NCBI GenBank assembly: GCA_965218795.1
Contig: OZ244653.1
Span: 4,634,472 to 4,698,471 of the forward strand
DNA from: a bacterium
Lineage (GTDB): Bacteria; UBA8248; JACPRG01; G963555815
Direction of reading: 5' to 3'
DNA: 64,000 nucleotides
Part shown: positions 3 through 22,816 of the stretch, piece by piece
Layout: every line of letters begins with the position of its first letter
Numbering within the stretch: the stretch's first letter is position 1
Made by a program: the position numbers and the translations under genes
Notes under the pieces: model-generated
Seen by the model: only the letters and a program-made list of their open reading frames with translations
Database searches by the model: none
What the model was told of the DNA's origin: nothing

Positions 3-1196
3 GTGGATATCGGGATCGGAGAGGAAGTGATTGGGGAAATCGCTCCGTCTGCATCCCGACCCGCGAAGTCCGTCATCGAGACCGGCGGAAACCTCGTCGC
101 CCCCGCATTCGTGGATGCGCACGTCTACCTCGACAAGGCTTTCCTCGCCGAAGAGGCCGAGTTTCTGCCCGATGCCTTCGGAGAAGAAGACCTCATCGAT
201 TTGACGCAGTCGGCGGCCGGGCCCATGAACCTCGAGGCGGTCGAGAGGCGCGCGCGACGATTTCTCTCGCAGGCCGTTCGTCACGGGACGGGCGTCGTCC
301 GGGGCGTGGCGGATGTTTATCCCGAAATCGGGACGCGGCGCGTGGAGCTTTTCCTTCGGCTCAAGGAGGAGTTCGCCCCGCGACTCGACCTGCAGGTTCT
401 GGCCTATCCACAGCTCGGCGTGGTTCGGACGCCCGGAACCCTGGATTTCTTGCGCGAGGCACTGAATCTGGGTGCGGACGTCCTCGGCGGGGCGCCCGCT
501 TTCGATTCCGACCTGGACGCCCATCTCGACAGCCTGTTCGACCTCGCCCGGTCGCTGGACCGCAGGCTCCATTTCTCCTTGGACATGGACCTCCCGAAGG
601 AGATCCCGGCCGAGCGTCTGGAGGTCTGGAAGGTGATCGAGCGGGCTCGCGCGGCGGGCATGCAGGGGCGGGTGTCCGTGGGTCACCTCTGCGCGCTGGG
701 TTCCATGACGCCGGGGGAGGCGGGCCGGGCCATCGAGGCCATTTCCGGCGCGGACTTGAACGTCCTCGTGTTTGCATCCTCCCAGCTTTACCGGCTGGGC
801 CGGTCGGATGAGAAAGACGTGCGACGCGGGTTGACGCGGATCAAGGAATTACTGGCCGCCGGGGTGAACGTGGCCTATGCCTCCAACGACGTTCGCGATG
901 CCTTCAACCCTTTCGGTAACGGAGACCTTCTGCTCGAAGGATTGACGGTTGCGCAGGCCGCGCACCTCGCTTCGGACGAAGAATTGGCGTCGGTCTTCGA
1001 GATGGCGACAAATAATGCGGCCCGCACACTGGCGATTGGGGAATCGTACGGTCTGGGGACCGGCAAACGGGCGGATCTGGCGGTCTTTGATGCCCCGTCC
1101 GTGGCCGAGGCGATTCGCTCGCAGGTCGAGAAGACGCACGTCGTCAAAGGCGGCAAACTCGTGGCGCGAAATCAGCGTACCAGTGAATTGATGTAG
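3..1196 (+). CDS. Amidohydrolase-superfamily protein (cytosine-deaminase / AtzC-like), 5'-partial at the window edge
   Basis: 397-aa ORF opening with the metal-ligand region ...LVAPAFVDAHVYLDKAFL (HxH-type motif of the amidohydrolase fold). Length and composition fit the cytosine deaminase-like subfamily. Confidence 0.8.
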   Translation: MDIGIGEEVIGEIAPSASRPAKSVIETGGNLVAPAFVDAHVYLDKAFLAEEAEFLPDAFGEEDLIDLTQSAAGPMNLEAVERRARRFLSQAVRHGTGVVRGVADVYPEIGTRRVELFLRLKEEFAPRLDLQVLAYPQLGVVRTPGTLDFLREALNLGADVLGGAPAFDSDLDAHLDSLFDLARSLDRRLHFSLDMDLPKEIPAERLEVWKVIERARAAGMQGRVSVGHLCALGSMTPGEAGRAIEAISGADLNVLVFASSQLYRLGRSDEKDVRRGLTRIKELLAAGVNVAYASNDVRDAFNPFGNGDLLLEGLTVAQAAHLASDEELASVFEMATNNAARTLAIGESYGLGTGKRADLAVFDAPSVAEAIRSQVEKTHVVKGGKLVARNQRTSELM

Positions 1197-1405
1197 AATC
1201 GGCCCCGAAGGATTCGATATTGCTGGATGTGAATGGGTGTTTTGGCGGGGCGCCCTGAAGCGTTGGCCGGATGGGTCGGTCCCCTCGAAGTCCCCACCCG
1301 AAGGATTCTGCCGAGCCTGAGACCCAATCTCATTGCTCCGCCCGGTTGCTGAGAGAATCAGCGGGCACAGGTTTTACCGGAACGCCTTGAAGGGAGAGGT
1401 AATCG

Positions 1406-2227
1406 ATGAAAGTCCGAGTGGCGGCGGCGCAGCCGCTGACCTTTCAAAAAGAACGGGAGCCGGAAAACTTGCCGGTGGCGCTGGATTACATCCGGCAGGC
1501 GGCGGAGGAGGGAGCCCATTTCATCTGCTTTCCGGAGGGCTATCCCGGCCCGTACTCCGGCGCCATGGATTTCGACCCGACCGGTGACTTGGCGGCGGCA
1601 GCCAGGAAGCACGGCATCTATGTGATCGCGGGCGGATTGGAAGAGGCCGGTCCCGACGCCTTCTACAACCTGCTGGATTTCTACTCGCCGGCCGGAGAAA
1701 GGCTCTACCGGTATCGGCGTTGCCAGAGCGCGGGGGACGGCGTGGATGTGCCGCTCTTCGGACGGCACATCCAGGAGGGGGGGGAACTCAAGGCGTTGGA
1801 GACGCCTTACGGCAACGTAGGGCTTCAGGTCTGCTCCGAGGTGTTTTCTCCCGAGATGTCCCGAGTGCTGGCGCTGGAGGGGGCGGACATAATTTTCTAT
1901 CCCGCGGGCGGGATGTTCTACGAGGTTTCGGAATCGTGGCGGATTCTGGTCCGCGCCCGGGCCATCGAAAACTACGTGTACTCCGTGATGTGCCAGAACC
2001 TGTTCGGGATGGAGAGGGGGATCGCGGCGATTGCCGCGCCGGAGGGATTGTTGGCCGAGGGGGACTCCCCTGGATTCGTTATCGCCGACCTCGACCTGGA
2101 CCGGCTGAAATTCCTGCGGGAGACGAAAGAAGACCTCGTCATGCCCAAGCCGTACAAGACCATTCCAGGCCTGATGGATTCCTGGCGCAAGCCGGAGCTG
2201 TATGGGCGGATTGTGGAGCGGAATTAG
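1406..2227 (+). CDS. Carbon-nitrogen hydrolase (nitrilase / aliphatic amidase superfamily)
   Basis: 273 aa. MKVRVAAAQP...HFICFPEG...(E-K-C-type CN-hydrolase layout). Sits 200 bp downstream of the preceding amidohydrolase. Confidence 0.85.
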   Translation: MKVRVAAAQPLTFQKEREPENLPVALDYIRQAAEEGAHFICFPEGYPGPYSGAMDFDPTGDLAAAARKHGIYVIAGGLEEAGPDAFYNLLDFYSPAGERLYRYRRCQSAGDGVDVPLFGRHIQEGGELKALETPYGNVGLQVCSEVFSPEMSRVLALEGADIIFYPAGGMFYEVSESWRILVRARAIENYVYSVMCQNLFGMERGIAAIAAPEGLLAEGDSPGFVIADLDLDRLKFLRETKEDLVMPKPYKTIPGLMDSWRKPELYGRIVERN

Positions 2228-2640
2228 ATTTCAGGACAATGCTGCGCTCCAATCCGAAATCGCTGCAAACGCTGATGACCATGACCTTGGCAAGACGAAA
2301 ATTGCTTCCGATATCATGAAGAAACCGGACAGGCTGTCTGATGACGAATGGAAGCTGATGAAGGCTCATTCCGGATGGGGGGTGGACATACGAAGAGGAA
2401 ATGAAATTGAGGATCCGGTGATCATGGAAATGACCCGCTTCCACCACGAACGATTGAATGGTCGAGGGCGCCCGGATGGTTTGAAGGAAAAAGCCGTAAC
2501 TGATCTTGATGAAAGCCTCCGGAATCGTCGACTTCTTTGTCGCAATGACGACCGATTGGCCTTACGAACACACCCTTTCGATCTTCGATGCGATGAACAA
2601 GCTGAAGCGGGAGAACGCGAACGGCGAGCTTTTTTGATAA
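2202..2640 (+). pseudogene. HD-GYP phosphodiesterase remnant (N-terminally truncated, internal frameshift)
   Basis: Frame 0 reads ...DDHDLGKTKIASDIMKKPDRLSDDEWKLMKAHSGWGVDI...TRFHHERLNGRGRPDGL, the HD-GYP core (HHE..DG.G.P). The expected following segment (SGIVDFFVAMTTDWPYEHTLSIFDAMNKLKRENANGELF) is in another frame from about 2503. The upstream half of the HD domain is absent and the remnant overlaps the CN-hydrolase 3' end. Confidence 0.55.
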
Positions 2641-2786
2641 AGATCTGTTCCAAGGGGATCCGTACGGATGATGGCGGAATAGGAGTGGCTATTTCGTTCA
2701 ACGCCGGACACCTGAATCCAATCAAGGGTCCTGTTCATCCACCATCAAAGAACCTGGAGTTCAATCATCGTGAGACAGCTTTTACC

Positions 2787-4145
2787 TCAGCCGTCGGCCG
2801 CCTTTTGGACCAGCTTGAGCGCCATTTCATTCTGCCGGGCGATCACTTCGTCCAGGTCGACGCCGAGGACCTCGCCCCGGTCGACCCTGAGCTCCCCGTT
2901 CACGAACGAGTAATCCACCTTCGGGACCCCGCAAAAGACCAGCGCGGCGATATAGTCGTGATTCGCCCCGGCAAACTGAATCTGGTTCAGGTTGACGCCG
3001 ATTACGTCCGCCGCCTTGCCGGGCGCGAGGGTTCCGATGTCGTCCCGGCCGAGCACCGCCGCCCCGCCCTTGGTCCCCATTTTGAGGACGTCCCGCGCGG
3101 AGATGTCGGATTCCGAATAGCGGATTCGCTGGATCAAAAGACTCTGCCGCGCCTCGTTGAAAAGGTGGGAGCTGTCGTTGCTGGCGCTGCCGTCCACGCC
3201 GATGCCGACGTTCACGCCCGACCGCATCATGTCCACCACCGGCGCGATGCCTGAGCTCAGGCGCATGTTGCTCACCGGACAATGCGCCACGCCGCCGCCC
3301 AGACCCGCCATCCGCTTGACCTCCGGGTCGTTCAGCCAGACGCTGTGGGCGTGGAAGCACCGTTCGTCCATCCATCCCACCTCCTCCATGAAGTCGAACG
3401 GACGCTTGCCGAAGTGCTGGGCGCAGTACTCGTCCTCGTCTTTGGTTTCCGCCAGGTGCGTGTGGCATTGCACCCCCGGGTAGCTGTCGGCCATCTTCCT
3501 CGATTCGCGGTAGAGGTCTGCGCTGGCGTTGAAGGGCGCGCAGGGGCCGACGCAGATCCGCGTCATACCGTTCGGCTCCGCCTCATGCCACTCCTCGATG
3601 AGCGCCTGGGTGACCCGGTGAACGGCGTCATCCTCTTCCACAATCTCGGGGTCGAGGTCGAATCCGGGGGAAAGGGCGCCCCGGGCCAGATGGAAGCGAA
3701 GACCGATTTCCTGCACCGCGCGAATTTCGTAAGAAGCGATCTCGGGCGAGGACTTCGGATGCACGTAGCAGTGATCCACGGCCGTCGTGCACCCGGACAG
3801 CAGCAACTCAACGGCAATCGTCCGGCCCGCGGACGCTGCCATTTCGTGATCCAAGTTGCGCCACACCCTGAAGTTTTCAATGATCCAGTCGAAGAGCTTC
3901 GCGTCCTGGGCCTGAGGCAGGTTGCGGGTCAGCGACTGGAAGAAGTGATGGTGGGTGTTGATCAAGCCCGGCATGAAGAGGTGTCCCCGCCCGTCGATCG
4001 TCCGATCCGGCTTCGCGTCGGCCGGAACCTCTTTCCCCATCGACTGGATCTGGTTGCCCTCGATCAATACGTAGGCCCCCTTGAGGGGCGCCTCCTCGAC
4101 GTCCGTGACCAGCAGGTCGATATCCCGGATCAGGGTTGTGCTCAT
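2787..4145 (-). CDS. TRZ/ATZ-family amidohydrolase (guanine/8-oxoguanine deaminase or hydroxyatrazine hydrolase-like)
   Basis: 452 aa. MSTTLIRDIDLLVTD...FMPGLINTHHHFFQSLTRN (HxH metal site) and typical downstream His/Asp ligands. Full length. Confidence 0.85.
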   Translation of the reverse strand: MSTTLIRDIDLLVTDVEEAPLKGAYVLIEGNQIQSMGKEVPADAKPDRTIDGRGHLFMPGLINTHHHFFQSLTRNLPQAQDAKLFDWIIENFRVWRNLDHEMAASAGRTIAVELLLSGCTTAVDHCYVHPKSSPEIASYEIRAVQEIGLRFHLARGALSPGFDLDPEIVEEDDAVHRVTQALIEEWHEAEPNGMTRICVGPCAPFNASADLYRESRKMADSYPGVQCHTHLAETKDEDEYCAQHFGKRPFDFMEEVGWMDERCFHAHSVWLNDPEVKRMAGLGGGVAHCPVSNMRLSSGIAPVVDMMRSGVNVGIGVDGSASNDSSHLFNEARQSLLIQRIRYSESDISARDVLKMGTKGGAAVLGRDDIGTLAPGKAADVIGVNLNQIQFAGANHDYIAALVFCGVPKVDYSFVNGELRVDRGEVLGVDLDEVIARQNEMALKLVQKAADG

Positions 4146-4152
4146 CGGTGCC

Positions 4153-5088
4153 TCAATCCTTTGTGTAGGGCAGGGTGATAGCCGCGGGCATGCGAGTGCT
4201 GCCGACGACCCCGGCGTACACCAGCAGCGTCAACAGATACGGCAGCATCCGAAGAATCTGAAATGAGACCGGGAAGCCCAAGGCTTCTATCCGCAGGCTC
4301 AACGCTTCAATAGCGCCGAACAGCAGGGCCACGCCCGCCGCCCGGTAAGGAAACCACTTGGCTACGATGACGATCGCCAGTGCGATGAATCCCCGGCCGC
4401 CCGTCATGCCTTCCACGAAGGAATCCAACTGGCTGATCGACAGATAAGCGCCTCCGATTCCCGCCAGCATACCGGAAATGATGATGGTGAGGTATCGAAC
4501 CCCCGGGACCGACACGCCCAGGCTGTCGGCGGCGCGGGGATATTCGCCGACGGCGTTGATGTGGAGGCCCCAGCGCGTCCGAAACAATATCCAACTGGCG
4601 ATCGGCAGGATGAGGAACGCGAGGTAGGTGAGCGGCGTGTGATGAAAGAGGATCTCCCCAACCACGGGCAGGTCCGTCCATCCCTTGATGTTGATGGCCT
4701 GGAAGGCTGATACCTTTGGGTTCTTGCCGATGCCCCACAGGGTCCGGCTGAGGAACGTGGTCAGCCCAAGTGCGGCGATATTCAGGGCGATGCCGGTCAC
4801 GATCTGATCGCCCGCCAGCGACACGGCCACGTAGGCCAGAAGGGCCGCGAATATCGCGCCCGCAACGATCGAGAACAGGACGCCCGCCCAGGGGCTGCCC
4901 GTGGCGAACGTTCCCGCCACTGCGGCGAAGGCCCCGAATAACATCATCCCCTCCAGGCCGATGTTGACCACTCCCGATCGCTCGGCGAACAGCTCGCCGA
5001 CGCTCAGAAAGACCAGGGGGATGGAGAGCCGGATCGTCGCCGAGATGAAATCGACCGAAAAGAAGAGCTGTTCAATTGAGCCGAGCAT
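4153..5088 (-). CDS. ABC transporter permease (BMP/nucleoside-uptake type, YufQ/NupQ-like)
   Basis: 311 aa, polytopic membrane protein (..IPLVFLSVGELFAERSGVVNIGLEGMMLFGAF..). Adjacent to the second permease and the ATPase. Confidence 0.85.
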   Translation of the reverse strand: MLGSIEQLFFSVDFISATIRLSIPLVFLSVGELFAERSGVVNIGLEGMMLFGAFAAVAGTFATGSPWAGVLFSIVAGAIFAALLAYVAVSLAGDQIVTGIALNIAALGLTTFLSRTLWGIGKNPKVSAFQAINIKGWTDLPVVGEILFHHTPLTYLAFLILPIASWILFRTRWGLHINAVGEYPRAADSLGVSVPGVRYLTIIISGMLAGIGGAYLSISQLDSFVEGMTGGRGFIALAIVIVAKWFPYRAAGVALLFGAIEALSLRIEALGFPVSFQILRMLPYLLTLLVYAGVVGSTRMPAAITLPYTKD

Positions 5089-6160
5089 GCCGTAATTCCT
5101 GTCGTTTCAAGAGGACGCGCATCAGGTATTGGGAAGAAGCCGCAATCAGCAAAACGATGGCCAGTCCCTGAACCACCTGAATGACCGCGGAGGGGACGCC
5201 CATCGTCTGTTGCAGGTTGTCGGAGCCTGAATCCAGCATCCCGAACAATAACGCGGCCAGGATCACGCCGAAGGGCTGGGTCCGCCCCACCAAGGCGACG
5301 GCGATCCCCGTGAATCCATAGCCGGGCGAGAAGAAATCGCTCAGGCGCAACTGGACGCCGTGGACTTCCGCGGTTCCCGCAAGCCCGGCCAACCCGCCGG
5401 CGAAAAACATCGCCAGGGTCGTTGTCCGAAGAACGCTGATGCCGACGAACCGGGCCGTGGAGACGCCGGCTCCCGTCGCCCGGATCTCGAATCCGACCCG
5501 GGTATGCCAAAGAAAGATGTACACGAGGACGGCAACGGCGAGCGCCAGGAAGATGCCGATGTGGATCCCCGTCAGATCGTGGAGTACCGGGAAGCGCGTG
5601 GATTCGGGCACCTCGGCGGACCAGGGGTAGTAGCTCGCCTCGTCCAGCATGGGGCCGTGCACCAAGTAGCTCACAATCCAGAAGGCGATGTAGTTCAACA
5701 TGATGGTGGTGATGATCTCGCTGAGGCCGAACTTCGCGCGCATCCACCCGGCCATGCCGCCCCAAAGCCCTCCTGCCAGAAAGCTGCCCAATAGGATCAT
5801 CGGGAAGTGGACGCCCCAGGGCATCTCCGGTAGGTACAGGGCGAGCGCGGTGGACGCCAGAGCGCCTATGTACAATTGGCCCTCGCCGCCGATGTTGAAC
5901 AGGCCGCACCGAAAGGCCAGCGAGACGCTGAGGCCGACGAAGAGCAGCGGCACCGTCCGCGTGATGCCCAGGCCGAACCCAGCGGGCGTACCGAAGGCTC
6001 CGTTCCACAGTGCGGCGTAGGCGCCGAGTGGGTTGATTCCGATTCCGCCGATGATGAACCCGCCGACCAGGAGCGCAATGATGACCGCCAGGAGGGGGGA
6101 GACCACCTGGAACAGGGCCAGCAGTCGGAAACGGGAGGCGGCAGAGGTTTCGGCCGTCAT
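5072..6160 (-). CDS. ABC transporter permease (BMP/nucleoside-uptake type, YufP/NupP-like)
   Basis: 362 aa, hydrophobic, contains ..GLFNIGGEGQLYIGAL.. Overlaps its neighbours by a few nucleotides, as expected in an operon. Confidence 0.85.
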   Translation of the reverse strand: MTAETSAASRFRLLALFQVVSPLLAVIIALLVGGFIIGGIGINPLGAYAALWNGAFGTPAGFGLGITRTVPLLFVGLSVSLAFRCGLFNIGGEGQLYIGALASTALALYLPEMPWGVHFPMILLGSFLAGGLWGGMAGWMRAKFGLSEIITTIMLNYIAFWIVSYLVHGPMLDEASYYPWSAEVPESTRFPVLHDLTGIHIGIFLALAVAVLVYIFLWHTRVGFEIRATGAGVSTARFVGISVLRTTTLAMFFAGGLAGLAGTAEVHGVQLRLSDFFSPGYGFTGIAVALVGRTQPFGVILAALLFGMLDSGSDNLQQTMGVPSAVIQVVQGLAIVLLIAASSQYLMRVLLKRQELRHARLN

Positions 6161-7677: not shown

Positions 7678-7767
7678 GGGCCGGTCGCGGTCGGTAGAGG
7701 AGCCGACGGGGGGAAAGCCGGGCGATGCCGGCCCTCCCCCGTGTCCGAATCGTATGGACTGAGACGG

Positions 7768-8757: not shown

Positions 8758-8921
8758 TTCACTCCATCCTTTCCATGGCAGTATGCCTTCGAACCCTTCC
8801 GGAACTCCCGATCCGCTCCCTCGGGCCGACCGGCGCCCGGACGATGCCGGCCGGGTATCCGGTATTCCGGGGAAGCGTCCTACGCTCCACCCGCTTCTGC
8901 GCTTCCGGTCTCAACCTCCGC

Positions 8922-9920: not shown

Positions 9921-10088
9921 GTCTGTCCCTCCCTCAGACAAATGGGTTCACTTCGCGAGCCAATGCTTAACAAATGCTCAGCGATCGTCGCGCACGATGC
10001 AGTGCAATCTTGCCAAAACAAGGTATGTCGCTATTCTCCACAATATTCGGTCTTGTCTCAAGCGAATATTGCTTGTGTCGGTCAGACA

Positions 10089-12715: not shown

Positions 12716-13083
12716 AAGCCCCCCGAAACGCCCTGCGGAATCTTGGAGGGATAACTCTTGCCCGTTTTCCCCTCCTGGGAACGAAGCGAGGGCATCGGAG
12801 CGGAACGAGAAATCAGGCCAATGTCATTTGTTCGGTAAGTAGAGGGCGGCTTTTGGCAGATGGTAGTTCAGGGCCACAGGGGTGTCAAGCGCGATAGTTG
12901 CTTGAGCGGGACCCGCTGGGGTGAATTTCGGTTTCCACGTCTCGAAGCAGGGATTGTCCTTCTTCCATTTCATGGATTAGGATGAGGGGTTCGAAAATCG
13001 AGGCGTTATGCAAATCACCCGTGATCGGGATAGCTCCGTCACGTGGCGATGGTTTTGACCGACTTGAGCGTGGAGTCCTGTAG

Positions 13084-15390: not shown

Positions 15391-15450
15391 CGGAAGTGCC
15401 GGCGGCATGGGAGAGCTCCCCGAACCGGAAATGGATGCGCCCCCGTACCC

Positions 15451-16932
15451 TTGAGCGGGCTGACAGGAGAACTTCCATTGGCATATGAAGACCTGAGGGC
15501 CTATCTGGACGCCCTTGAGCGGGACGAGTTGTTGCACTGGGTGGAGAACGAGGTCGATCCGTCCTGGGAAATTTCGGCGCTTGCCCGGATGATCTTCCGG
15601 GGGTATCGCGAAGAGGACCGATACGGCCTCGGGTTCCGGAACATCAGGGGGTGTCCGGGAGGACGTCTCGTGACGGGGGTCACGGCGATTTCTTCCAGGC
15701 AGATCGGCGTGGCGGTGGAAACGAAATCCGAACCCGGAGCGATCTTCGAGCGGGTCAACGGAGGCATCCGGAACCCGATCTCGCCCGTGATGGTGGACTC
15801 GGGACCCTGCAAGGATGTGGTCCTCATGGGGGAAGAGGCGGACTTGACGCTGTTGCCCGTTCCGACCTGGACTCCAGAGAAGGACGGAGGCCCTTATCTC
15901 ACCCCCCTCTGGGTCACGAAGGATCCGGAAACGGGGGTGCGGGATATCGGCGTCCGCCGGTGCCAGCTCAAAGGGCCGAGACACACGGGCATTCAATTCG
16001 CCGCGCCGGACCGCTACGGGGCCGTTCAGTGGGCCAAGTGGAGGGAGCGGGGGGAGCCCATGCCCGCCGCGCTTTTCAGCGGCGTCGATCCGGTGATCAC
16101 GCTGGTTGGTCCGGGCCGGTACGGGCGCGATGAGCTTGAGGTGGCTGGGGGAATTCGGGGCGAGCCCGTGGAACTGGTCAAATGCGAAACGGTTGATCTG
16201 GAGGTTCCCGCAACAGCGGAGTTCGTGGCCGAAGGGGAGATCACCACGGATCGGGTGGAGGCGGAGGGGCCCTTCGGGGAGTTCACCGGCTACATGGCCG
16301 GGAACCGGGAGTGTCCCGTGTTTCACGTCAAGTGCATCACCCACCGGCGCGACCCCATCCTCGTCGGCCTGATCAGCCAGTTCCCGCCGAACGAGAGCAC
16401 CGTGTTGAAGCGGCACTTTTTGGAGACCGCGATCCATCGGCATCTCGTCTCGACGCTGAAGATTCCCGGGTTGGTGGACCTTCATATGCCCGAGGCGGGG
16501 GGCAGCGCCGCCGCGCTCTGGATGAGCGTGCGCAAGGTCTATGCGGGCCAAGTGGAGCAGCTCATGAACGGCGCCCTGGGATTTTGCGGTATGAGCTACT
16601 TCAAGTGGATCGTGGTGGTGGACGATGACGTCGACGTTCGGGATCCGTTCATTCGGGAATGGGTGATGAACTATCGCGTCCGCCCGGACAAGGACATCCG
16701 CGTCCTAAGCGACATGGGCGCGCTCGAGCTGGACCCATCGTCGGACGACCCCGCCAGGGGGGACCGGCCCATGACGGGGGCCAAAGCGCTCATCGACGCG
16801 ACGAAGAAGTGGAAGTATCCGGATGTCTCCTTCCCGCCCCGAAGGTATCTGGAGCGGGTTCGGGAGGATTGGTCCAAGTATGAGCTCCCGCCATTGGGAG
16901 AGGTCAATCTGCCGAGGGGGCTGGGGGATTGA
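15451..16932 (+). CDS. UbiD-family (prFMN-dependent) reversible decarboxylase
   Basis: 493 aa. N-terminal ...AYEDLRAYLDALERDELLHWVENEVDPSWEISALARMIF and the length match UbiD/Fdc-like decarboxylases. No ubiX is nearby. Confidence 0.9.
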   Translation: MSGLTGELPLAYEDLRAYLDALERDELLHWVENEVDPSWEISALARMIFRGYREEDRYGLGFRNIRGCPGGRLVTGVTAISSRQIGVAVETKSEPGAIFERVNGGIRNPISPVMVDSGPCKDVVLMGEEADLTLLPVPTWTPEKDGGPYLTPLWVTKDPETGVRDIGVRRCQLKGPRHTGIQFAAPDRYGAVQWAKWRERGEPMPAALFSGVDPVITLVGPGRYGRDELEVAGGIRGEPVELVKCETVDLEVPATAEFVAEGEITTDRVEAEGPFGEFTGYMAGNRECPVFHVKCITHRRDPILVGLISQFPPNESTVLKRHFLETAIHRHLVSTLKIPGLVDLHMPEAGGSAAALWMSVRKVYAGQVEQLMNGALGFCGMSYFKWIVVVDDDVDVRDPFIREWVMNYRVRPDKDIRVLSDMGALELDPSSDDPARGDRPMTGAKALIDATKKWKYPDVSFPPRRYLERVREDWSKYELPPLGEVNLPRGLGD

Positions 16933-16965
16933 TGAGCGCCGCGAAAACGCGGAGGCACGTTGTCT

Positions 16966-19389
16966 TCACAAAGCGCCCCCCGCCTCGATGTCTGATGTCT
17001 TCCGCAGGGCCGCCCAGACCGCTTCAGGAGACAGCGGAAGATCCTTGAACCGGACGCCCACGGCGTCCCGGATGGCATTGGCGATGGCGGCGGCCGTCGG
17101 CGCGAGGGCGGGCTCGCCGACGCCTTTCGCGCCGAAGGGGCCGTCGGGGTGGGGAACCTCGACCAGCCGGGCCGTCAGGCTCGGCACGTCCAGCGTGGAG
17201 CACATGTGGTAATCGACGAACGTCGGGTTGAGGAACTTCCCCTCCTCCAGCGTGACTTCCTCGATCAAGGTACAGCCCAGCCCCATAGCCAGGGCGCCCT
17301 CCAACTGCTGAAGGCAGTTCATGGGGTTGATGGCCCGGCCGACGTCGTGGGCCGCGACCAGCCGAAGGACCCTAACCTCCCCGGTTTCATGATCCACCTC
17401 GACTTCGGCCGCCTGGGCCCCATACATCCAGAAAGGCACCGGCCGCGACCCCTGTCCGGTCTCCGGGTCGAGGGGCGTGACGTCCTCCATGTGGTACTCG
17501 CCCCGGCCGACGACAGCCCGCTCACCCCGGATCCCGAAAACCAGCCGGCCGAGTGAAAGCGTCCGTTCCGGGGACCCGGTGACGGTGACCTGCCCGCCTT
17601 TCAGCTCGATATCCTCGGGCGCCGCCTCCAGGACGTCCGCCCCCATTGCGAGAATCTGGGTCCTGGCGTCCGCGGCGGCCCGTTGCAGGGCCAGCCCCAT
17701 TGAGAAGGTCGTCCGGCTCGCCGTCGTGGAGCGGTCGTAGGGTGTGACGTCCGTATCGGGCACGGCCAGGCTGATTTGCGCCGGGTCGACGCCCAGCTCC
17801 TCGGCGACGATCTGTGTCAGTACGGTCTGGGCCCCCTGACCGACTTCGATACTGCTCGAGAGCGCCTGGACGGTCCCGTCCTCGTTGATCTTGACGAATG
17901 CGGAGGAGGAGCCGTACCCGGCCGCCCCGCCCTTGTTCATCGCTGCGATGCCGCGTCCCGTTCCCGGGGTTTTCGGCTCGGTCCAGCCGATCGACTCGGC
18001 CGCGGCCCGGAGCGATTCGAGCACGCCGACGCTTTTCAACGACTCGCCCGTCGGGGAGATATCCCCTTCGCGGTGGGCGTTGCGAAGGCGGAATTCCAGC
18101 GGATCGAGCCCGAGTACCCGGGCAATTTCGTCTATCTGGCACTCCGACGCCCACGTCACCTGCGGTATCCCGTATCCCCGAAAGGCGCCCGCCACGGGGT
18201 TGTTGGTGTACACGCAGAGGCTGTCGATGTGAACGTGGGGAATCCGGTAGGGTCCGCCCGCGGAGTATCCGGCGTTGGTGGCCACCGTCGGACCCTTTTC
18301 CGTGTAGGCCCCCGTGTCCCAGTAGACCTTGATCTCACGGCCCAGCAGGAGACCATCCTCTGTAACGCCCGTCCGCAATTCGTGAACGGTCGGGTGCCGC
18401 ATCATGGTCGATGTAAAGACCTCCTCGCGGGTGAACAAGACCCGAACGGGTCGTCCCCCGGCATGGAGGGCCAGCAGCGCGGCGAGGGGTTCCGCGTTGA
18501 GCCCCCCCTTTCCGCCGAAGCCTCCGCCCATGGGCAGGGAAGTGACGCGCAACCTCGTCATGGGGAGGCCGAAGGCCGCCGCCAGCTCCCGCCTGCATCG
18601 ATAGGGAGCGTCATTGTGGGTCCAGACGGTCAGCTTGTCGCCCGAGGTCTGGGCCATGGCGGCGTGGACTTCCAGCGGCGCATGATGGACCGCGTGGCTC
18701 GAATATCGATCCGTGAAAACCCGGTGGGCCTTGGAGAAGGCTTCCTCGACGCTTCCCCGGCGCAGCCTGAAGTGATGGCAAATGTTCGTTCCCTCGACCG
18801 GCAGACAACTCTTGTCGCGCCGGTACGTCATCATGTCTTCATGGACGACGGGCGCTTCCGGGGAGACCGCCGTTTCGGGGTCGTGCACACCGGGGAGCTC
18901 TTCGTATTCGACATTGATTCGCTCCAGCGCCTCCAGGGCGGCATCGTCGCTTTCCGCCGCCACAGCCGCGACCCCCTCCCCCTGAAACCGGGTCGTCCCA
19001 ACCGCAAGGACCGGGCGGTCCAGCATGGACGAACCGTACAGCCCGGGGTTGTCCCGTCCCGTCACCACGACCCGGACCCCGCGAACCTTCCCGGCCGATG
19101 AAACGTCGATGTTCCGGATTCGCGCGTGAGGATAAGGGCTCCGCAAGGTCCGCCCCGCGAGCATTCCCGGCAGCTTGAAGTCGGCCCCGTAAACGACGGT
19201 ACCGGTGGATTTGTCCCCGGCGTCCACGCGGGGCAGGGATGCGCCCACCAGAATCGATCCGCCGGTGACTTCGGCTTCCTGTCTCATTTCCCTCGCCGTG
19301 CTTCCAGCCGGGCCGTCTTCGGCCCATATCGGGACGCCGGCCCCCGAAGGAGTCCGCCCTGTCCATCCCGTTGGGATCCAATCTCCCAA
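16966..19389 (-). CDS. Xanthine dehydrogenase-family molybdopterin-binding large subunit, second copy
   Basis: 807-aa ORF. The true start is probably internal (MRQEAEV.., about 19287). Contains ...LPRVDAGDKSTGTVVYGADFKLPGMLAGRTLRSPYPHARIRNIDVS..., typical of Mo-hydroxylase large subunits. Confidence 0.85.
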   Translation of the reverse strand: MGDWIPTGWTGRTPSGAGVPIWAEDGPAGSTAREMRQEAEVTGGSILVGASLPRVDAGDKSTGTVVYGADFKLPGMLAGRTLRSPYPHARIRNIDVSSAGKVRGVRVVVTGRDNPGLYGSSMLDRPVLAVGTTRFQGEGVAAVAAESDDAALEALERINVEYEELPGVHDPETAVSPEAPVVHEDMMTYRRDKSCLPVEGTNICHHFRLRRGSVEEAFSKAHRVFTDRYSSHAVHHAPLEVHAAMAQTSGDKLTVWTHNDAPYRCRRELAAAFGLPMTRLRVTSLPMGGGFGGKGGLNAEPLAALLALHAGGRPVRVLFTREEVFTSTMMRHPTVHELRTGVTEDGLLLGREIKVYWDTGAYTEKGPTVATNAGYSAGGPYRIPHVHIDSLCVYTNNPVAGAFRGYGIPQVTWASECQIDEIARVLGLDPLEFRLRNAHREGDISPTGESLKSVGVLESLRAAAESIGWTEPKTPGTGRGIAAMNKGGAAGYGSSSAFVKINEDGTVQALSSSIEVGQGAQTVLTQIVAEELGVDPAQISLAVPDTDVTPYDRSTTASRTTFSMGLALQRAAADARTQILAMGADVLEAAPEDIELKGGQVTVTGSPERTLSLGRLVFGIRGERAVVGRGEYHMEDVTPLDPETGQGSRPVPFWMYGAQAAEVEVDHETGEVRVLRLVAAHDVGRAINPMNCLQQLEGALAMGLGCTLIEEVTLEEGKFLNPTFVDYHMCSTLDVPSLTARLVEVPHPDGPFGAKGVGEPALAPTAAAIANAIRDAVGVRFKDLPLSPEAVWAALRKTSDIEAGGAL

Positions 19390-19601
19390 TTCCGGTCAGA
19401 CAATATACACGAACCCCCCGAAAGCCGCTGGAAGGCTCCGGCCCATTTGAATCGAAGGGATTCGTGAATTCGACGATGCTGCCGAATGCCCGCGCGGTCC
19501 AAGCTCCCCAAGATGGAAACCGAGCAAGGTGGAGGACCTTATAATGTCCCGGTGGTCCATGAGGGCCCGAGACCCAACCGTCCGGACGGAGACGAGGAAT
19601 C

Positions 19602-20423
19602 ATGACTCATTCTTACGAAACCATAGCAGTCGAAAAGTCGGATGGCGTCACCACGCTGCGATTCAATCGGCCGGAGAAGAAGAACGCGATGAGCCCCCGA
19701 CTGCACCGGGAGATGCTGGAGGCGATGGATGTCCTGGAAGATGACCCGGATACGCGGGTTTTGATCGTCACCGGGTCGGGTGACAGCTTTTGCGCCGGGC
19801 AGGACCTGAAGGAATTCTTCGCGGAGTTGGAGGGGAAACCCGTCGAGCGGCGGCGGGCCGCCAAAACCTCCGCAGAGTGGCAGGCCCTGAAGCTTCGTCT
19901 TTTCGCGAAACCCACGATTGCGGCCGTCAACGGCTGGTGTTTCGGGGGCGGGTTCGTCCCCGTGGCCGTTTGCGACCTTGCCGTGGCGGCGGACGAAGCG
20001 GTATTCGGTCTAAGCGAGATCAATTTTGGACAATTTCCCGGAGGTTTGGTCACTCAGGCGTTGGATGAGGTCATGCGCCCCCGGGATTACCTCTACTTTG
20101 CGATGACGGGGGAAACCTTTGACGGTCGGAAGGCCGCGGATATCGGACTCGTGAATTTTTCGGTTCCACTGAAGGATCTGGACGGCGCGGTCCGAAGGCT
20201 GGCGACAAAACTGATGGAAAAAGACCCGGTCGCATTGCGACAGACGAAGGAGGTCTACAAAATCGGAAAGCGGATGGATTGGGAGCAGGCGTACGCGTGG
20301 GCGATGGCCAAGGGGAATGAGTTGACCTTCCACCAGGAGGGGGCCTGGGTGAACGAAGGGATCGGTCAGTTCAAAGACAAGAAATACAAGCCCGGTCTCG
20401 GTTCTTTCAAACCGGAGGAATAA
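19602..20423 (+). CDS. Enoyl-CoA hydratase/isomerase (crotonase) family protein
   Basis: 273 aa. ...TLRFNRPEKKNAMSPRLHREMLEAMDVLEDDPDTRVLIVTGSGDSFCAGQDLKEF shows the crotonase oxyanion-hole region. Confidence 0.85.
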   Translation: MTHSYETIAVEKSDGVTTLRFNRPEKKNAMSPRLHREMLEAMDVLEDDPDTRVLIVTGSGDSFCAGQDLKEFFAELEGKPVERRRAAKTSAEWQALKLRLFAKPTIAAVNGWCFGGGFVPVAVCDLAVAADEAVFGLSEINFGQFPGGLVTQALDEVMRPRDYLYFAMTGETFDGRKAADIGLVNFSVPLKDLDGAVRRLATKLMEKDPVALRQTKEVYKIGKRMDWEQAYAWAMAKGNELTFHQEGAWVNEGIGQFKDKKYKPGLGSFKPEE

Positions 20424-20473
20424 ATCAACCTTCCATCGGATTCCGGGCGATTGAGTTTCCGCAACGCCGCCCG

Positions 20474-21469
20474 TCAGGCCACGGCGGGAATGATCTTTTC
20501 TGAAAACGTGCGCATGAGCGACGCGGCGTCCCCGGTCGTCGAGAGCAGGAACACCTGATTCACGCCGGCCTGGACAAAGGCGTCGAGTTTTCCGATGACT
20601 TCGTCCGGAGTCCCCGCCAGGGAGAAGTGGTCGATCCATTCCTCAGGCACCAGGTCGGCGTGCTCCGCCTGCGTGAGCATATGCTCCTGGTATCGGTAGG
20701 CTTCCTGGAAGCGCCGGGTTTCCTCCGCCGTGAAGCCCGACTTTTCCAGGGGGACCGCTGCGATGGGCCGTCGGGCCACGTAGGTCCGCACGTTCCGCCG
20801 GGCCTCTTCTCTGTCCTCGGAGACGTCGCAACCGATCTGGACGACGATATCAACGGATTTGGGGTCGCGCCCGGCTTCTTCCGCGGCTTGGCCGATGGTC
20901 TCGACAACGTACGTCAGGAGCTCCTCAGTGGCCCCGACGGACGCGATGACGCCGTCGCAGAGCCTCCCGGCCAGGCGCAGCATCTTGGGTCCGTTGGCCG
21001 CGAGATAGATTGGGACATTGGTGGGTTCGAATGTGGATAGAGCGGGGACCTTCCGGCCCTCATAGGTTCCGTCTTCCCCGTCCAGCAGATTGCGCATGCA
21101 CGTGATGGCGTCTTCCAGGACTCCGGTCGATGCGGGTTTCAGTCCCAGATGGAGGCAGGTTGTGTCGCCCGCCCCGATGCCCAGAATGGCTCGCCCGTTG
21201 GAGACTTCGTCCAGGCTGGCGAAGGCCCGGGCGGTCACGGCCGGATGGCGCGCGACGGGAGTCGTTACCGCCGTTCCCAGCTGGATGGTCGAGGTTTCCC
21301 TGGCGCATATGGCGAGGGTCACATAGGGGTCGCGAAAAATGCTTTGACTGTCTCCCTTCCAGGCATGAGAGAATCCCGTTTCCTCGGCCACCCGGACGGC
21401 CTCCACCACTTCAGCCGTCGAGCGCCGCTCCTCATGCGGGAATATCCCGATTCCGAATTTCAGGCCCAT
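20474..21469 (-). CDS. LLM-class flavin-dependent oxidoreductase (luciferase-like, possibly F420-dependent)
   Basis: 331 aa. MGLKFGIGIFP...RAILGIGAGD fits the TIM-barrel luciferase-like family. Confidence 0.8.
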   Translation of the reverse strand: MGLKFGIGIFPHEERRSTAEVVEAVRVAEETGFSHAWKGDSQSIFRDPYVTLAICARETSTIQLGTAVTTPVARHPAVTARAFASLDEVSNGRAILGIGAGDTTCLHLGLKPASTGVLEDAITCMRNLLDGEDGTYEGRKVPALSTFEPTNVPIYLAANGPKMLRLAGRLCDGVIASVGATEELLTYVVETIGQAAEEAGRDPKSVDIVVQIGCDVSEDREEARRNVRTYVARRPIAAVPLEKSGFTAEETRRFQEAYRYQEHMLTQAEHADLVPEEWIDHFSLAGTPDEVIGKLDAFVQAGVNQVFLLSTTGDAASLMRTFSEKIIPAVA

Positions 21470-21670
21470 GCCACCGCTCCTCCCCCCCGAGCTTGCTGAC
21501 GGTTGCTCTCTTACCTTCCCGTGCTGTATCTATGGGAATCATTCATTGATCAGAAAAGGGAAGTCAAGGGTAGCCCATGGGACTTTCTCTGGCCTGAAAA
21601 ATCGTTCGAGGGGGCGAATCCGGAAGTCTGATAGGGACTGTCACGCAGGCGCGATTGGAAAGAGACCTCC

Positions 21671-22816
21671 ATGAATTTTGATCTTACCGAAAAACTGCGG
21701 CTATTGCGCGAAATGGTGCGAGAGTTCGTTCGGCAGGATCTGCTCCCGCACGAAGAGTGGGTGGAGGAGCTTGACGACGTCCCTCCCGAACTTCTGAAAG
21801 AGCTTCGCGTCAAGGCCCGCGACCTGGGCCTTCTGGGCCTCACCATTCCCAAGGAATGCGGCGGCGCAGGAATGGGTTTTTTGGCCAACTGTGTTCTCAG
21901 AGAAGAGCTGGGCCGGGCGAGCCTGGCCATGTCCTATGCAGTCCGGGGTCCGGCTCCCATTTTGTCGATGGGCACGCCCGGGCAGATCGAGAAGTATCTC
22001 GCCCCATGCCTGCGGGCGGAAAAGCGGGACTGTTTCGCCCTGACCGAGCCCAACGCCGGCTCGGACGCTTCGGCCATTGAGACCAGCGCCGTGCGGGATG
22101 GAGAAGACTTCATCCTGAACGGCAATAAGATCTTCATCACCGACGGGATCAAGGCGGATTTCACGATTGTGTTCGCCGTGACGGACAAAGAGAAGCGGGC
22201 GCGCGGGGGCGTGACCGCGTTCTTGGTGGACAAAGGGACGCCGGGCTTTCAGGTGGGGCAAAAGTTCCAGAAGATGGGTTGGCGCGGGACGGATCTGTCC
22301 GAGCTGGTCTTTCAAAACTGCCGGGTCCCCGATACGCAGGTATTGGGTGAAATCGGTCAAGGGTTCCGCTTGGCGATGGAATGGATTGACGTCGGGCGCC
22401 TGGGCATCGCCGCGGCGGCCGTGGGAACAGCGGAGCGGTTGCTGGAAATGGCGAAAGGTTACGCAAGCGAAAGGGTGACCTTCGGCAAGCCTTTGGCGGA
22501 CCGCCAGGCCGTTCAGTGGATGATCGCGGATTCGGCCATGGAAATCCGGGCGGCCCGCCTCCTCACCTACCAGGCGGCGGCCGAGGGGGATCAGGGCCGC
22601 GAGACGCGGCAGGCGGCGGCGATGGCAAAGCTGTACGCGACGGAGATGGTGGGGCGCGTGGCGGACCGGGCGCTCCAGATCCACGGTGGGATGGGATACA
22701 TGAAAGATCTGCCGATTGAGCGCATGTATCGGGATGTCCGCTACAACCGCATCGGGGAGGGCACCTCCGAGATCCTTCGCCATCTCATTGCACGGGGGAT
22801 CCTGAAGGGGAAGTAA
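21671..22816 (+). CDS. Acyl-CoA dehydrogenase
   Basis: 381 aa. N-terminal acyl-CoA dehydrogenase domain, the middle ..FALTEPNAGSDA.. motif and the C-terminal ..QIHGGMGY.. region. Confidence 0.9.
   Translation: MNFDLTEKLRLLREMVREFVRQDLLPHEEWVEELDDVPPELLKELRVKARDLGLLGLTIPKECGGAGMGFLANCVLREELGRASLAMSYAVRGPAPILSMGTPGQIEKYLAPCLRAEKRDCFALTEPNAGSDASAIETSAVRDGEDFILNGNKIFITDGIKADFTIVFAVTDKEKRARGGVTAFLVDKGTPGFQVGQKFQKMGWRGTDLSELVFQNCRVPDTQVLGEIGQGFRLAMEWIDVGRLGIAAAAVGTAERLLEMAKGYASERVTFGKPLADRQAVQWMIADSAMEIRAARLLTYQAAAEGDQGRETRQAAAMAKLYATEMVGRVADRALQIHGGMGYMKDLPIERMYRDVRYNRIGEGTSEILRHLIARGILKGK

Follow-up and report, generated by a model that had tools for sequence, protein, structure and literature searches.

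A BMP-type importer operon flanked by amidohydrolases in uncultured Tectomicrobia/Nitrospinota-like bacteria: a candidate cluster for catabolism or salvage of a nucleobase-like N-heterocycle

Introduction

Two described degradation systems come closest to a cluster of amidohydrolase, BMP-type transporter, molybdenum (Mo) hydroxylase and UbiD genes that we have examined in a 64,000-nucleotide stretch of bacterial DNA (hereafter the window; assembly GCA_965218795.1, contig OZ244653.1, positions 4,634,472–4,698,471). The first is cluster I of Cupriavidus sp. LA-1 (Doi, Maeda and Takaya, 2025), which takes pterin and lumazine to xanthine (PMC12391406). In this route a pterin deaminase gives lumazines, a Mo-hydroxylase gives 6,7-dihydroxylumazine, ring contraction gives xanthine-8-carboxylate and UbiD gives xanthine (PMC12391406). 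An isomerase (Amidohydro_2 alpha/beta) and a helper GTPase always accompany the cluster and UbiD is paired with UbiX; variants have a CDA-like deaminase or, in Streptomyces, a molybdopterin (MPT)-binding subunit only (PMC12391406). The second is the upper pathway of atrazine and melamine degradation (the Atz proteins of plasmid pADP-1 and TrzN of Paenarthrobacter aurescens pTC1), which uses three amidohydrolase classes, namely TRZ/ATZ (AtzA/TrzN), the AtzB/8-oxoGuaD cluster and the CodA/AtzC cluster. On pADP-1 (NC_004956.1, positions 92490–98737; our locus L101), the transporter genes atzT-U-V-W are followed on the same strand by the gene for a 443-aa CodA-like amidohydrolase (HVHLDK).

Individual enzymes provide further points of reference. 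The AtzB/8-oxoGuaD cluster includes enzymes for damaged or alkylated guanines, for example an N2,N2-dimethylguanine hydrolase (PMC13054789), and its members share a 2-substituted 4-oxo-pyrimidine core in their substrates and are promiscuous (PMC13054789, PMC12828455). One of them, Pa0142, has been reported to be active on 8-oxoguanine, guanine, isocytosine and ammeline (PMC10481359).

The first 22.8 kb of the window (positions 3–22816) had been described, in an original prediction made from the sequence, as a single catabolic island for a purine-, pterin- or triazine-like N-heterocycle. We find that approximately 17 kb of it (about positions 3–16932) is a conserved cluster in a few uncultured Tectomicrobia/Nitrospinota-like bacteria, with the remaining 6 kb lying outside. 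Within this cluster, a BMP-type ATP-binding cassette (ABC) importer is co-transcribed as an operon with one amidohydrolase, AH3, at its head and another, AH2, at its tail. The cluster may serve the catabolism or salvage of an amino-substituted nucleobase-like N-heterocycle of purine, pterin, pyrimidine or triazine type, a proposal for which we judge the case to be evenly poised; the substrate class and the order of the steps are what we infer from the genes.

Results

Gene content, operon structure and comparison with described systems

Genes were called from six-frame open reading frames (ORFs) filtered by third-position GC content and annotated with Pfam and NCBIfam. This gave 17 genes in positions 3–22816, with no room for further ones, and agreed with nearly all of the earlier inventory. 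The features of the conserved cluster are as follows.

3–1196, plus strand: AH1, CodA/AtzC-class amidohydrolase (Pfam Amidohydro_1/3), its 5′ end cut by the window edge
1406–2227, plus strand: CN-hydrolase (Pfam CN_hydrolase, E = 6.5e-31)
2253–2495, plus strand: HD-GYP remnant, a pseudogene fragment (weak HD_5 match, E = 5e-4)
2787–4145, minus strand: AH2, predicted deaminase of 8-oxoguanine/isocytosine type (just under the NCBIfam NF006055 cut-off; PDB matches)
4153–5088 and 5072–6160, both minus strand: two ABC permeases (Pfam BPD_transp_2)
6157–7677, minus strand: fused double ABC ATPase (two Pfam ABC_tran domains)
7768–8757, minus strand: BMP_b, a BMP binding protein (Pfam Bmp)
8922–9941, minus strand: BMP_a, a BMP binding protein (Pfam Bmp)
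10089–11168, minus strand: alpha/beta hydrolase, resembling 2,6-dihydroxy-pseudo-oxynicotine hydrolase (DHPONH; PDB 2jbw match)
11165–12715, minus strand: AH3, TRZ/ATZ-like subtype-III amidohydrolase of 516 aa (Pfam Amidohydro_1, E = 8e-45)
12860–12888, minus strand: sigma-70-like promoter match (TTGACA-17-TACCAT) upstream of AH3
13084–15390, plus strand: MoL1, xanthine-oxidase-family molybdopterin-binding large subunit (Pfam Ald_Xan_dh_C, MoCoBD_1, MoCoBD_2)
15451–16932, plus strand: UbiD-family (prenylated FMN, prFMN) decarboxylase (Pfam UbiD, UbiD_C)

The minus-strand genes form a single operon running from 12715 to 2787, in the order AH3, alpha/beta hydrolase, two BMP proteins, ATPase, two permeases and AH2, neighbouring genes overlapping by 4, 4 or 17 nt or lying 7–164 nt apart. 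The TTG start of the alpha/beta hydrolase overlaps the AH3 stop by 4 nt (TTGA), which bears out the predicted coupling of these two genes. The ATPase gene overlaps the downstream permease by 4 nt, the permeases overlap each other by 17 nt, and AH2 begins 7 nt further on. The AH1/CN-hydrolase pair on the plus strand converges on the operon and the MoL1/UbiD pair, also on the plus strand, diverges from AH3; the operon itself is the robust unit of the region, and the two pairs lie beside it. The divergent AH3–MoL1 intergenic region is 368 nt long and holds no notable ORF. The promoter match within it agrees at 10 of 12 positions, and is present in the closest relative (L001, see below) but not alignable in the next (L002). 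A promoter/terminator scan of this region gave a number of sites not above shuffled expectation and its alignment revealed no motif shared as far as L002; we regard the promoter assignment as weak.

The gene families listed in the original prediction are largely those that we find. A cytosine-deaminase-like amidohydrolase (AH1), an ‘extended’ one (AH3), the BMP-type ABC importer with duplicated binding proteins, the CN-hydrolase and UbiD are present, as are a crotonase, an LLM oxidoreductase and an acyl-CoA dehydrogenase (ACAD). The count of four amidohydrolase-superfamily enzymes has to be lowered to three, since Pfam finds three Amidohydro_1/3 genes in positions 3–22816 and no further paralog anywhere in the window. 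Two Mo-hydroxylase genes do occur as described, but as incomplete enzymes: both encode large subunits only, and partner subunits were not found in the 64 kb. Apart from the dead HD-GYP fragment, which is real, no regulator gene was found in positions 1–24000 (Pfam/NCBIfam), in line with the prediction; an Rfam scan of the same positions gave no riboswitch that would report a ligand, including those of 8-oxoguanine or guanine type.

The gene mix also differs, as had been said, from textbook purine, pyrimidine, atrazine and nicotinate operons: NCBIfam equivalog cut-offs were unmet except that of the crotonase. Canonical xanthine dehydrogenase and aerobic purine catabolism found no match in an XdhA/PucD equivalog, its partner subunits, a uricase or an allantoinase; the last two were absent from positions 3–22816 by Pfam. 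Among the 17 genes there was likewise no ring-opening amidohydrolase, amidase-signature, Amidohydro_2 (PF04909) or GTPase gene (Pfam). The substrate cannot be named from the cluster's genes, as the prediction had also held.

With the atrazine system the window shares the three amidohydrolase classes and a BMP binding protein with fused ATPase and two permeases, by homology and not orthology: identities are 22–41% overall, with 22–34% for the enzymes and 27–41% for the transporter. No orthologs of AtzA/TriA/TrzN, AtzB or AtzC/TrzC were identified (BLASTP/MAFFT against pADP-1 and pTC1 proteins), nor were AtzD/TrzD, AtzE, AtzF or biuret hydrolase of the cyanuric acid lower pathway found in positions 3–22816 (Pfam). 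The amidohydrolase that follows the transporter is CodA-like on pADP-1 but 8-oxoGuaD-like (AH2) in the window, and the window adds a CN-hydrolase, a Mo large subunit, UbiD and a DHPONH-like hydrolase. Its genes are packed into one compact operon; atzA, atzB and atzC, by contrast, lie apart from one another, with insertion sequences (ISs) on their flanks.

With LA-1 cluster I, likened by its description, the window has in common a Mo-hydroxylase, UbiD, an amidohydrolase-type deaminase and uptake genes. It is without the Amidohydro_2 isomerase (DHLI), a GTPase of the LA1_0143 type, UbiX and the Fe-S and FAD subunits; it has an ABC/BMP importer in place of purine/pyrimidine permeases, and an extra CN-hydrolase and second deaminase. 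In the nicotine pathway of Arthrobacter pAO1, DHPONH, the ketone dehydrogenase and the omega-amidase resemble the alpha/beta hydrolase, MoL1 and the CN-hydrolase of the window, but the other nicotine genes are not present, and the pathway for its part involves neither deaminases nor a BMP importer. No close orthologous cluster with a defined substrate was found, and the nearest experimentally defined systems, LA-1 cluster I and pADP-1, would be analogues rather than orthologs.

Conservation and extent of the cluster

The exact AH3 protein of the window has no identical entry in the public protein collection. Its close relatives are 96% (L001), 74% (L002) and 75% (L089, Candidatus Tectomicrobia) identical, and those that carry names are metagenome-assembled genomes (MAGs) of Nitrospinota and Ca. 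Tectomicrobia. L001 keeps the gene order of the window from ACAD to the first BMP gene. In L002, UbiD and MoL1 diverge from an operon of AH3, BMP, ATPase, two permeases and AH2, which converges on the CN-hydrolase and AH1, followed by a creatininase-family gene and an amine oxidase. In L089, the order is AH3, Mo large subunit, BMP, ATPase, two permeases and AH2, converging on the CN-hydrolase, so that a Mo large subunit lies inside the operon. A fourth genome, L097, reached via the CN-hydrolase, has this gene directly upstream of a MoL1 ortholog (87%) and beside an amine oxidase. Relatives at 74–87% identity thus keep the core genes together in three different arrangements, with AH2 a member of the operon in each of the three close relatives.

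The genes to the right of UbiD behave differently. They are:

16966–19389, minus strand: MoL2, second Mo-hydroxylase large subunit
19602–20423, plus strand: crotonase (NCBIfam NF006588), p-hydroxycinnamoyl-CoA hydratase/lyase (HCHL)
20474–21469, minus strand: F420-type LLM oxidoreductase (domain call)
21671–22816, plus strand: ACAD (domain call)

These genes alternate in strand, are kept in L001 (94–97% identity) and are absent from L002 and L089; in L002 an IS and a sensor kinase occupy their place. L002 also lacks the alpha/beta hydrolase and the second BMP gene. MoL2 is 35% identical to MoL1. The crotonase passes the HCHL model NF006588 (339.6 versus a cut-off of 276), which places it in phenylpropanoid side-chain cleavage, outside N-heterocycle chemistry as far as the family assignment goes. 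The core genes remain clustered despite three rearrangements, which cannot be said of the right-hand 6 kb; the 22.8 kb does not, then, make up a single unit. The single island of the original prediction therefore divides: its core genes are co-conserved in related genomes, and the left two-thirds is upheld as a conserved cluster, probably for taking up and hydrolysing a nucleobase-like compound rich in nitrogen, while positions 16966–22816 are not co-conserved and hold neighbours rather than cluster members.

The two complete deaminases

AH3, the first gene of the operon, is by its sequence an uncharacterised TRZ/ATZ-like subtype-III amidohydrolase, probably of deaminase type; it carries an insertion specific to its family and is extended at the C-terminus. 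It meets no NCBIfam cut-off (best 259.7 versus 609) and its best PDB match scores only 160 bits; the top matches are nucleobase and triazine enzymes. Identity to TrzN is 24% and to AtzA between 22% (MAFFT) and 25% (BLASTP). Residues H69, H71, H247, E250, H284 and D335 are invariant across 24 relatives. At least 738 database proteins are related to AH3 at E ≤ 1e-30, many of them encoded next to BMP transporters.

Three residues beyond the HxH motif, AH3 has a glutamate (Glu74, HTHSAE) that is invariant throughout its family and is shared with TrzN (HQHLYE; sequence verified on plasmid pTC1), in contrast to the glutamine found in AtzA, AtzB, AH2 and guanine deaminases. In guanine-deaminase-type enzymes the glutamine after beta-strand 1 binds the exocyclic oxygen (PMC12828455). 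The replacement of this oxyanion glutamine by glutamate in AH3 thus suggests that the neighbouring ring substituent of its substrate would be amino, not oxo.

AH2, the last gene of the operon, appears to be a deaminase of the 8-oxoguanine/isocytosine type (AtzB/8-oxoGuaD cluster). It falls short of the 8-oxoguanine deaminase equivalog NF006055 by 1.3 bits (530.7 versus 532) and aligns end-to-end, at 404 bits, with VCZ isocytosine deaminase (PDB 7ww2, E = 2e-120) and 8-oxoguanine deaminase (PDB 3hpa, E = 6e-120). The catalytic set is complete (HHHFFQ, an HxHxxQ motif, and HTHLAE; H65, H67, Q70, H230, E233, H267 and D318), and Q70, F85, W87, F205, E233, H267 and D318 correspond by sequence offset only to Q73, F88, W90, F210, E237, H271 and D322 of VCZ. 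AH2 thus shares catalytic and pocket residues with the group formed by Pa0142, 3hpa and VCZ, but differs in sitting in a transporter operon with a second deaminase. To our knowledge this setting has not been described for 8-oxoguanine/isocytosine deaminases; no dedicated literature search was made. As the group is promiscuous, the native substrate of AH2 cannot be read from homology.

AH2 also matches PDB 2paj, which we take to be isoxanthopterin deaminase, at 199 bits. It is 34% identical to AtzB, with the HHHFFQ motif common to both. The related NdmH has substrate-flanking residues W85/W93/Y98/Y133 and a C-Q-x-x-N motif (PMC13054789). With AtzB as proxy for NdmH, AH2 does not show the features of this subgroup (C-Q-x-x-N plus N; W85/W93/Y98/Y133): in the alignment it is without the AtzB-type two-residue insertion and the first Trp, and reads C202-A203-x-x-N206, with no Gln. 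The missing insertion and Trp make an NdmH assignment unlikely.

AH1, the CN-hydrolase and the HD-GYP spacer

AH1 scores below the cut-off of the NCBIfam model PRK05985 (237.9 versus 408); in the PDB it matches cytosine deaminase (4r7w, E = 1.5e-48) and AtzC (E about 1e-39), and it is 29% identical to AtzC of pADP-1. Its metal site may be remodelled or lost: H63 of CodA, the second His of HxH, is replaced by Y42, and H214 by S192 in ‘HFSLD’, where relatives have DxHxD. With two canonical metal ligands replaced, the activity of AH1 is doubtful. The alteration is confined to an orthogroup of three (the window, L002 18606–19874 and P0294; 66–76% identity), and 33 other AH1 relatives keep both HxH and DxH.

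The CN-hydrolase appears to belong to a rare subfamily of the Nit/omega-amidase-like branch. Its best PDB match is mouse Nit2 (2w1v, 75 bits), and the subfamily counts 53 database proteins at E ≤ 1e-20. Its gene lies beside AH2 in L002 and L089.

Between the CN-hydrolase and AH2 genes, the HD-GYP remnant reads HDLGK...HHERLNGRGRPDGL, with GYP changed to GRP, and its HD_5 match (E = 5e-4) is below the gathering score (20.2 bits versus 27.2). The ORF that carries it (2202–3254) provides no intact context, its remainder overlapping the 3′ end of AH2. The spacer between the two genes (2228–2786) measures 560 nt in the window compared with 37 nt in L002, so it looks like a lineage-specific insertion that then decayed.

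The importer and the alpha/beta hydrolase

The transporter genes have the architecture of a BMP/PnrA-family importer, in which a single operon encodes a Bmp protein bearing a signal peptide together with a fused ATPase and two BPD_transp_2 permeases. BMP_b and BMP_a are 62% identical (Pfam Bmp, E = 4e-52 and 8e-56), and both have signal-peptide-like N-termini ending in AQ/K. L002 and L089 have the BMP_b type only, and their permeases are 82–87% identical to those of the window. Identity to the pADP-1 transporter is 27–31% for AtzT, 41% for AtzU (ATPase), 41% for AtzW and 34% for AtzV (permeases). The ‘putative B6 transporter’ equivalogs were unmet by the importer genes (for example, 469 versus 670).

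The best PDB matches of the binding proteins are Lbp (7x0r), followed by AtzT (6pi5). Lbp has been shown among the nucleoside-bound structural homologs of BmpA (PMC13325309); our literature search on 7X0R itself found nothing usable. The nearest solved relatives thus bind nucleosides or purines, or are AtzT (hydroxyatrazine-binding homology), and the ligand may be a nucleoside or nucleobase.

The alpha/beta hydrolase is, from its match to PDB 2jbw (E = 3e-71, 244 bits, residues 13–352 against 29–361), a clear relative of DHPONH, a C-C hydrolase. It occurs only in the window and L001 and is missing in L002 and L089, as a lineage-specific insertion.

MoL1 and UbiD

Neither Mo large subunit reaches the XdhA equivalog cut-off of 780 (581.7 for MoL1 and 536.6 for MoL2). 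The best PDB match of MoL1 is the alpha subunit of 4-hydroxybenzoyl-CoA reductase (1rm6, 307 bits), and 6-hydroxypseudooxynicotine dehydrogenase (7dqx) scores 230 bits. MoL1 orthologs adjoin UbiD in L001 and L002, and the CN-hydrolase gene in L097.

The UbiD gene follows MoL1 at a distance of 60 nt. Its product clears the cut-off of the generic model TIGR00148 only, and has HmfF (6h6x, 194 bits) as its best PDB match. UbiD orthologs at 56–66% identity are numerous and occur in varied contexts, with other UbiDs, NicX, DctP or non-orthologous Mo subunits; as they have no constant context, UbiD is not firmly tied to the operon and is its weakest link. A tblastn search of plasmids with UbiD gave best relatives at 34% identity, in a Rhizobiaceae cluster of UbiD, Mo-subunit and UbiX genes without Amidohydro_2.

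In one such plasmid, of Neorhizobium petrolearium (NZ_CP123001.1, 6320–17471; L083), UbiD (34%) has a stand-alone Mo large subunit, UbiX and a GntR regulator as neighbours. In divergent orientation to this group lies a full Mo-hydroxylase (large subunit, CoxG, Fe-S and FAD) with a binding protein. This UbiD/Mo-subunit module recurs on rhizobial megaplasmids.

Distribution of AH3 and its neighbours

An AH3 profile scan of one genome per species gave 80 loci with relatives at 32–44% identity, none closer than 44%; these were compared with the window proteins by tblastn and their neighbouring ORFs were clustered. BMP-type ABC genes lay within 10 kb of the AH3 relative in 23 of the 80 loci; this count, like the adjacency of the core genes in three permutations in related genomes, points to more than chance. 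Mo large subunits appeared in 12 loci of the ORF clustering, the window, L001 and L002 included, and close CN-hydrolase homologs in a handful of AH3 loci.

The combination of AH3 with the BMP importer and the CN-hydrolase also turns up in other phyla. In Solirubrobacterales/Conexibacter (L012 and L013), the CN-hydrolase ends an operon of AH3, BMP, ATPase and two permeases. The same genes are clustered in a Verrucomicrobia MAG (L032), and in two metagenome contigs (L090 and L091, 49% identity) the CN-hydrolase gene overlaps the AH3 start and the BMP importer follows. A CN-hydrolase ortholog beside an amidohydrolase in L098 was discarded as support because that amidohydrolase is unrelated to AH3.

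Other recurrent partners are flavin amine-oxidase-like (L002, L097, L005, L012 and L038), HDAC-like amidohydrolase, DUF5591-like, isochorismatase and PF06684 proteins, an amidohydrolase of about 385 aa and aldehyde dehydrogenases; our literature search on PF06684 found nothing usable. In about 15 Rhizobiales loci, an AH3-like gene and BMP importer occur with a RutR-like TetR regulator, a GMC oxidoreductase and NIPSNAP. In this set (L018, L019, L037, L047 and about 12 more; L031), the AH3 relatives are 33–37% identical and a 283-aa protein with a faint UDG-superfamily match is also present. A Pleomorphomonas locus with the AH3-type set has UbiD, UbiX, SDR and pyrimidine nucleoside phosphorylase genes instead. 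The Rhizobiales/Pleomorphomonas set looks like a modified-pyrimidine pathway.

The remainder of the window

Directly to the right of the region studied, a gene at 23204–26698 opens a defence/mobile stretch. It encodes a 1164-aa fusion of an N-terminal Swt1-like HEPN domain to an SNF2 helicase, resembling DrmD of DISARM (319.6 bits versus a cut-off of 610). Two identical 1705-bp IS copies (DDE_Tnp_1_4, 481 aa) lie in direct orientation at 28941–30645 and 33440–35144, with about 2.8 kb between them. The second overlaps the 5′ end of an AAA_30/UvrD-like helicase ORF of 1213 aa (34879–38520), which may therefore be truncated. From about 38900 to 60500 the GC content rises from about 0.60 to 0.71, and the genes include a TrwC relaxase-helicase, a coupling protein, TraG_N, TraH, TraU and TrbI-like proteins (F-type conjugation) and an S24/LexA-like peptidase. 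This segment is an integrated conjugative element or plasmid-derived, with foreign composition.

Discussion

The gene order suggests how the conserved cluster might work. The BMP binding protein would feed the ABC importer and an amino-substituted nucleobase analogue would enter the cell. AH3 would attack a ring carbon with an amino neighbour to produce a 2-amino-4-oxo (isocytosine/guanine-type) core, which is the substrate type expected of AH2, and AH2 would take this product. After both steps the ring would carry two oxo groups, as in compounds of xanthine, urate, uracil, lumazine or ammelide type. The CN-hydrolase, the most constant partner of AH3 across phyla, would cleave an amide, formamide or N-carbamoyl group, which could belong to the substrate itself, to a side chain set free from it or to a product of ring opening. 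MoL1 might hydroxylate the ring, with electron-transfer subunits encoded elsewhere, and UbiD might act as decarboxylase on a heteroaromatic carboxylate. The DHPONH-like hydrolase and the second BMP protein would be recent add-ons, probably widening the range to an acyl-substituted analogue; AH1, with its remodelled metal site, would have a doubtful part. This logic is chemically precedented by both the LA-1 and the atrazine systems, the former being its likely analogue.

In a narrower form, which we put forward tentatively and think rather doubtful, the cluster would encode a natural pathway that has not been described before, for an N-heterocycle carrying two or three amino groups (or amino/formamido groups). 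AH3 and then AH2 would act first, followed by the Nit-like amidase, the stand-alone Mo subunit and UbiD, and such a pathway would be the kind of template from which the melamine/atrazine upper pathway and AtzT could have come. Candidate substrates, judged from the predicted enzymes, would include 2,6-diaminopurine, diamino- and triaminopyrimidines, formamidopyrimidines from oxidised purines, and an aminopteridine; a literature search on diaminopurine deaminases found nothing usable. N6-carbamoyl purines of the t6A type are one possible substrate class only.

Several observations weigh against the proposal of an N-heterocycle cluster. Close co-conservation comes from only four related MAG lineages (74–96% identity), so that part of it could be inherited synteny. 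No enzyme of the cluster has a characterised ortholog, and the Glu-versus-Gln argument for AH3 draws on one mechanistic study and one sequence comparison. By tblastn, no [2Fe-2S], FAD/CoxM or CoxG subunit and no UbiX was found in the 64 kb, L001, L002 or L089. The Mo large subunits near AH3 are non-orthologous among loci, that of L089 being 36% identical to MoL1 and 44% to MoL2, and UbiD orthologs 59–66% identical occur without any amidohydrolase or BMP genes. Finally, the amine oxidase, HDAC-like deacylase, isochorismatase, aldehyde dehydrogenase and creatininase neighbours would fit a guanidino/ureido-amine pathway equally.

Within the N-heterocycle proposal, damaged or modified purines are our leading guess, ahead of pterins and triazines. 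In this special case the cluster would salvage or clean up bases from nucleic-acid turnover, such as 8-oxoguanine, formamidopyrimidines, N2- or N6-substituted purines or 2,6-diaminopurine, to xanthine, hypoxanthine or urate. Taken by itself we consider it rather unlikely. The near-match of AH2 to the 8-oxoguanine deaminase model, the damaged- and alkylated-guanine enzymes in its cluster (PMC13054789) and the nucleoside/purine receptors among BMP proteins are consistent with it, yet AH2 is without the AtzB/NdmH-type insertion and no 8-oxoguanine or guanine riboswitch was found. The cluster has no glycosylase, nucleosidase, phosphorylase or phosphoribosyltransferase gene, and it offers no obvious role for either UbiD or the DHPONH-like hydrolase. 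A further point in its favour is the creatininase-family gene beside AH1 in L002: the creatininase family includes a formamidopyrimidine deformylase, and CN-hydrolases include formamidases.

A serious alternative, if an unlikely one, lies outside heterocycle chemistry. AH3 would be a deiminase for a guanidino or amidino compound, whether acyclic or cyclic, the CN-hydrolase would remove the N-carbamoyl group so formed, an amine oxidase and aldehyde dehydrogenase would consume the amine, and AH2, MoL1 and UbiD would be bystanders. The association of AH3 with the CN-hydrolase is the tightest and widest that we observe, including the translational overlap in L090, and the partner families (flavin amine oxidase-like, HDAC-like amidohydrolase, aldehyde dehydrogenases, isochorismatase and creatininase) would fit such a pathway. 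The best NCBIfam match of the CN-hydrolase, weak as it is, is N-carbamoylputrescine amidase, and formiminoglutamate deiminase belongs to the same superfamily branch as AH3. Against this, AH3 has the full aromatic-deaminase set with best matches to nucleobase and triazine enzymes, and the transporter family is known for nucleosides and nucleobases. AH2 would hardly be a bystander when the operon includes it in each of the three close relatives. Among the Rhizobiales relatives there are links to RutR-like regulators and, in one case, to a pyrimidine nucleoside phosphorylase.

Pterin or lumazine degradation as in LA-1 cluster I seems improbable to us. The same unusual trio of Mo-hydroxylase, UbiD and amidohydrolase-type deaminase occurs as neighbours in both, and the published variants have a CDA-like deaminase or, as in the window, an MPT-binding subunit only (PMC12391406). 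The defining isomerase, its GTPase and UbiX are all missing, however, and the importer is of the BMP ABC type rather than a permease. The nearest solved relative of UbiD is HmfF, and its plasmid relatives (34%) lie in a cluster without Amidohydro_2. As for AH2, its match to 2paj (199 bits), presumably a pterin enzyme as noted above, is far exceeded by that to the 8-oxoguanine/isocytosine deaminases.

A melamine/s-triazine pathway, with AH3 as a TriA/TrzN-like enzyme, AH2 as an ammeline deaminase, AH1 as an AtzC/TrzC-like enzyme and an AtzT-like importer, would account for the three amidohydrolase classes, the transporter type, the resemblance to pADP-1 in which atzT-U-V-W precede an amidohydrolase, the reported activity of Pa0142-type enzymes on ammeline and the HxHxxE motif common to AH3 and TrzN, but we think it very improbable: identities are low, cyanuric acid hydrolase, AtzE/F and biuret hydrolase are all missing, AH1 is without two metal ligands, the Mo-hydroxylase, UbiD and CN-hydrolase have no triazine role, and the cluster keeps its synteny in several MAG lineages from the environment and, in contrast to xenobiotic pathways of recent assembly, has no flanking ISs. 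Two further ideas were dropped: clostridial purine fermentation (ring-opening amidohydrolase, CN-hydrolase as ureido-amidase and UbiD as aminoimidazole-carboxylate decarboxylase), attractive on paper, because the amidohydrolases are of deaminase type, with nothing usable found in the literature on the clostridial xanthine-to-aminoimidazole pathway; and a 7-deazapurine (preQ0 nitrile) route, for which there was no supporting evidence.

Seen as a probable N-heterocycle catabolic cluster that brings known enzyme families together in a new combination, the locus is not surprising in itself, and without biochemistry it would be one of many catabolic clusters lacking an assigned substrate. If the proposal is true, it would provide a native function for a large uncharacterised TRZ/ATZ-like branch, for a rare CN-hydrolase subfamily and for BMP proteins beyond nucleoside salvage. 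It could also show the natural chemistry behind the enzyme classes and the transporter that atrazine and melamine degradation later took over, a question of natural origin that has been pursued experimentally for AtzB (PMC7615792, PMC13054789). The cluster is a concrete target set for substrate screening in uncultured Tectomicrobia/Nitrospinota-like bacteria.

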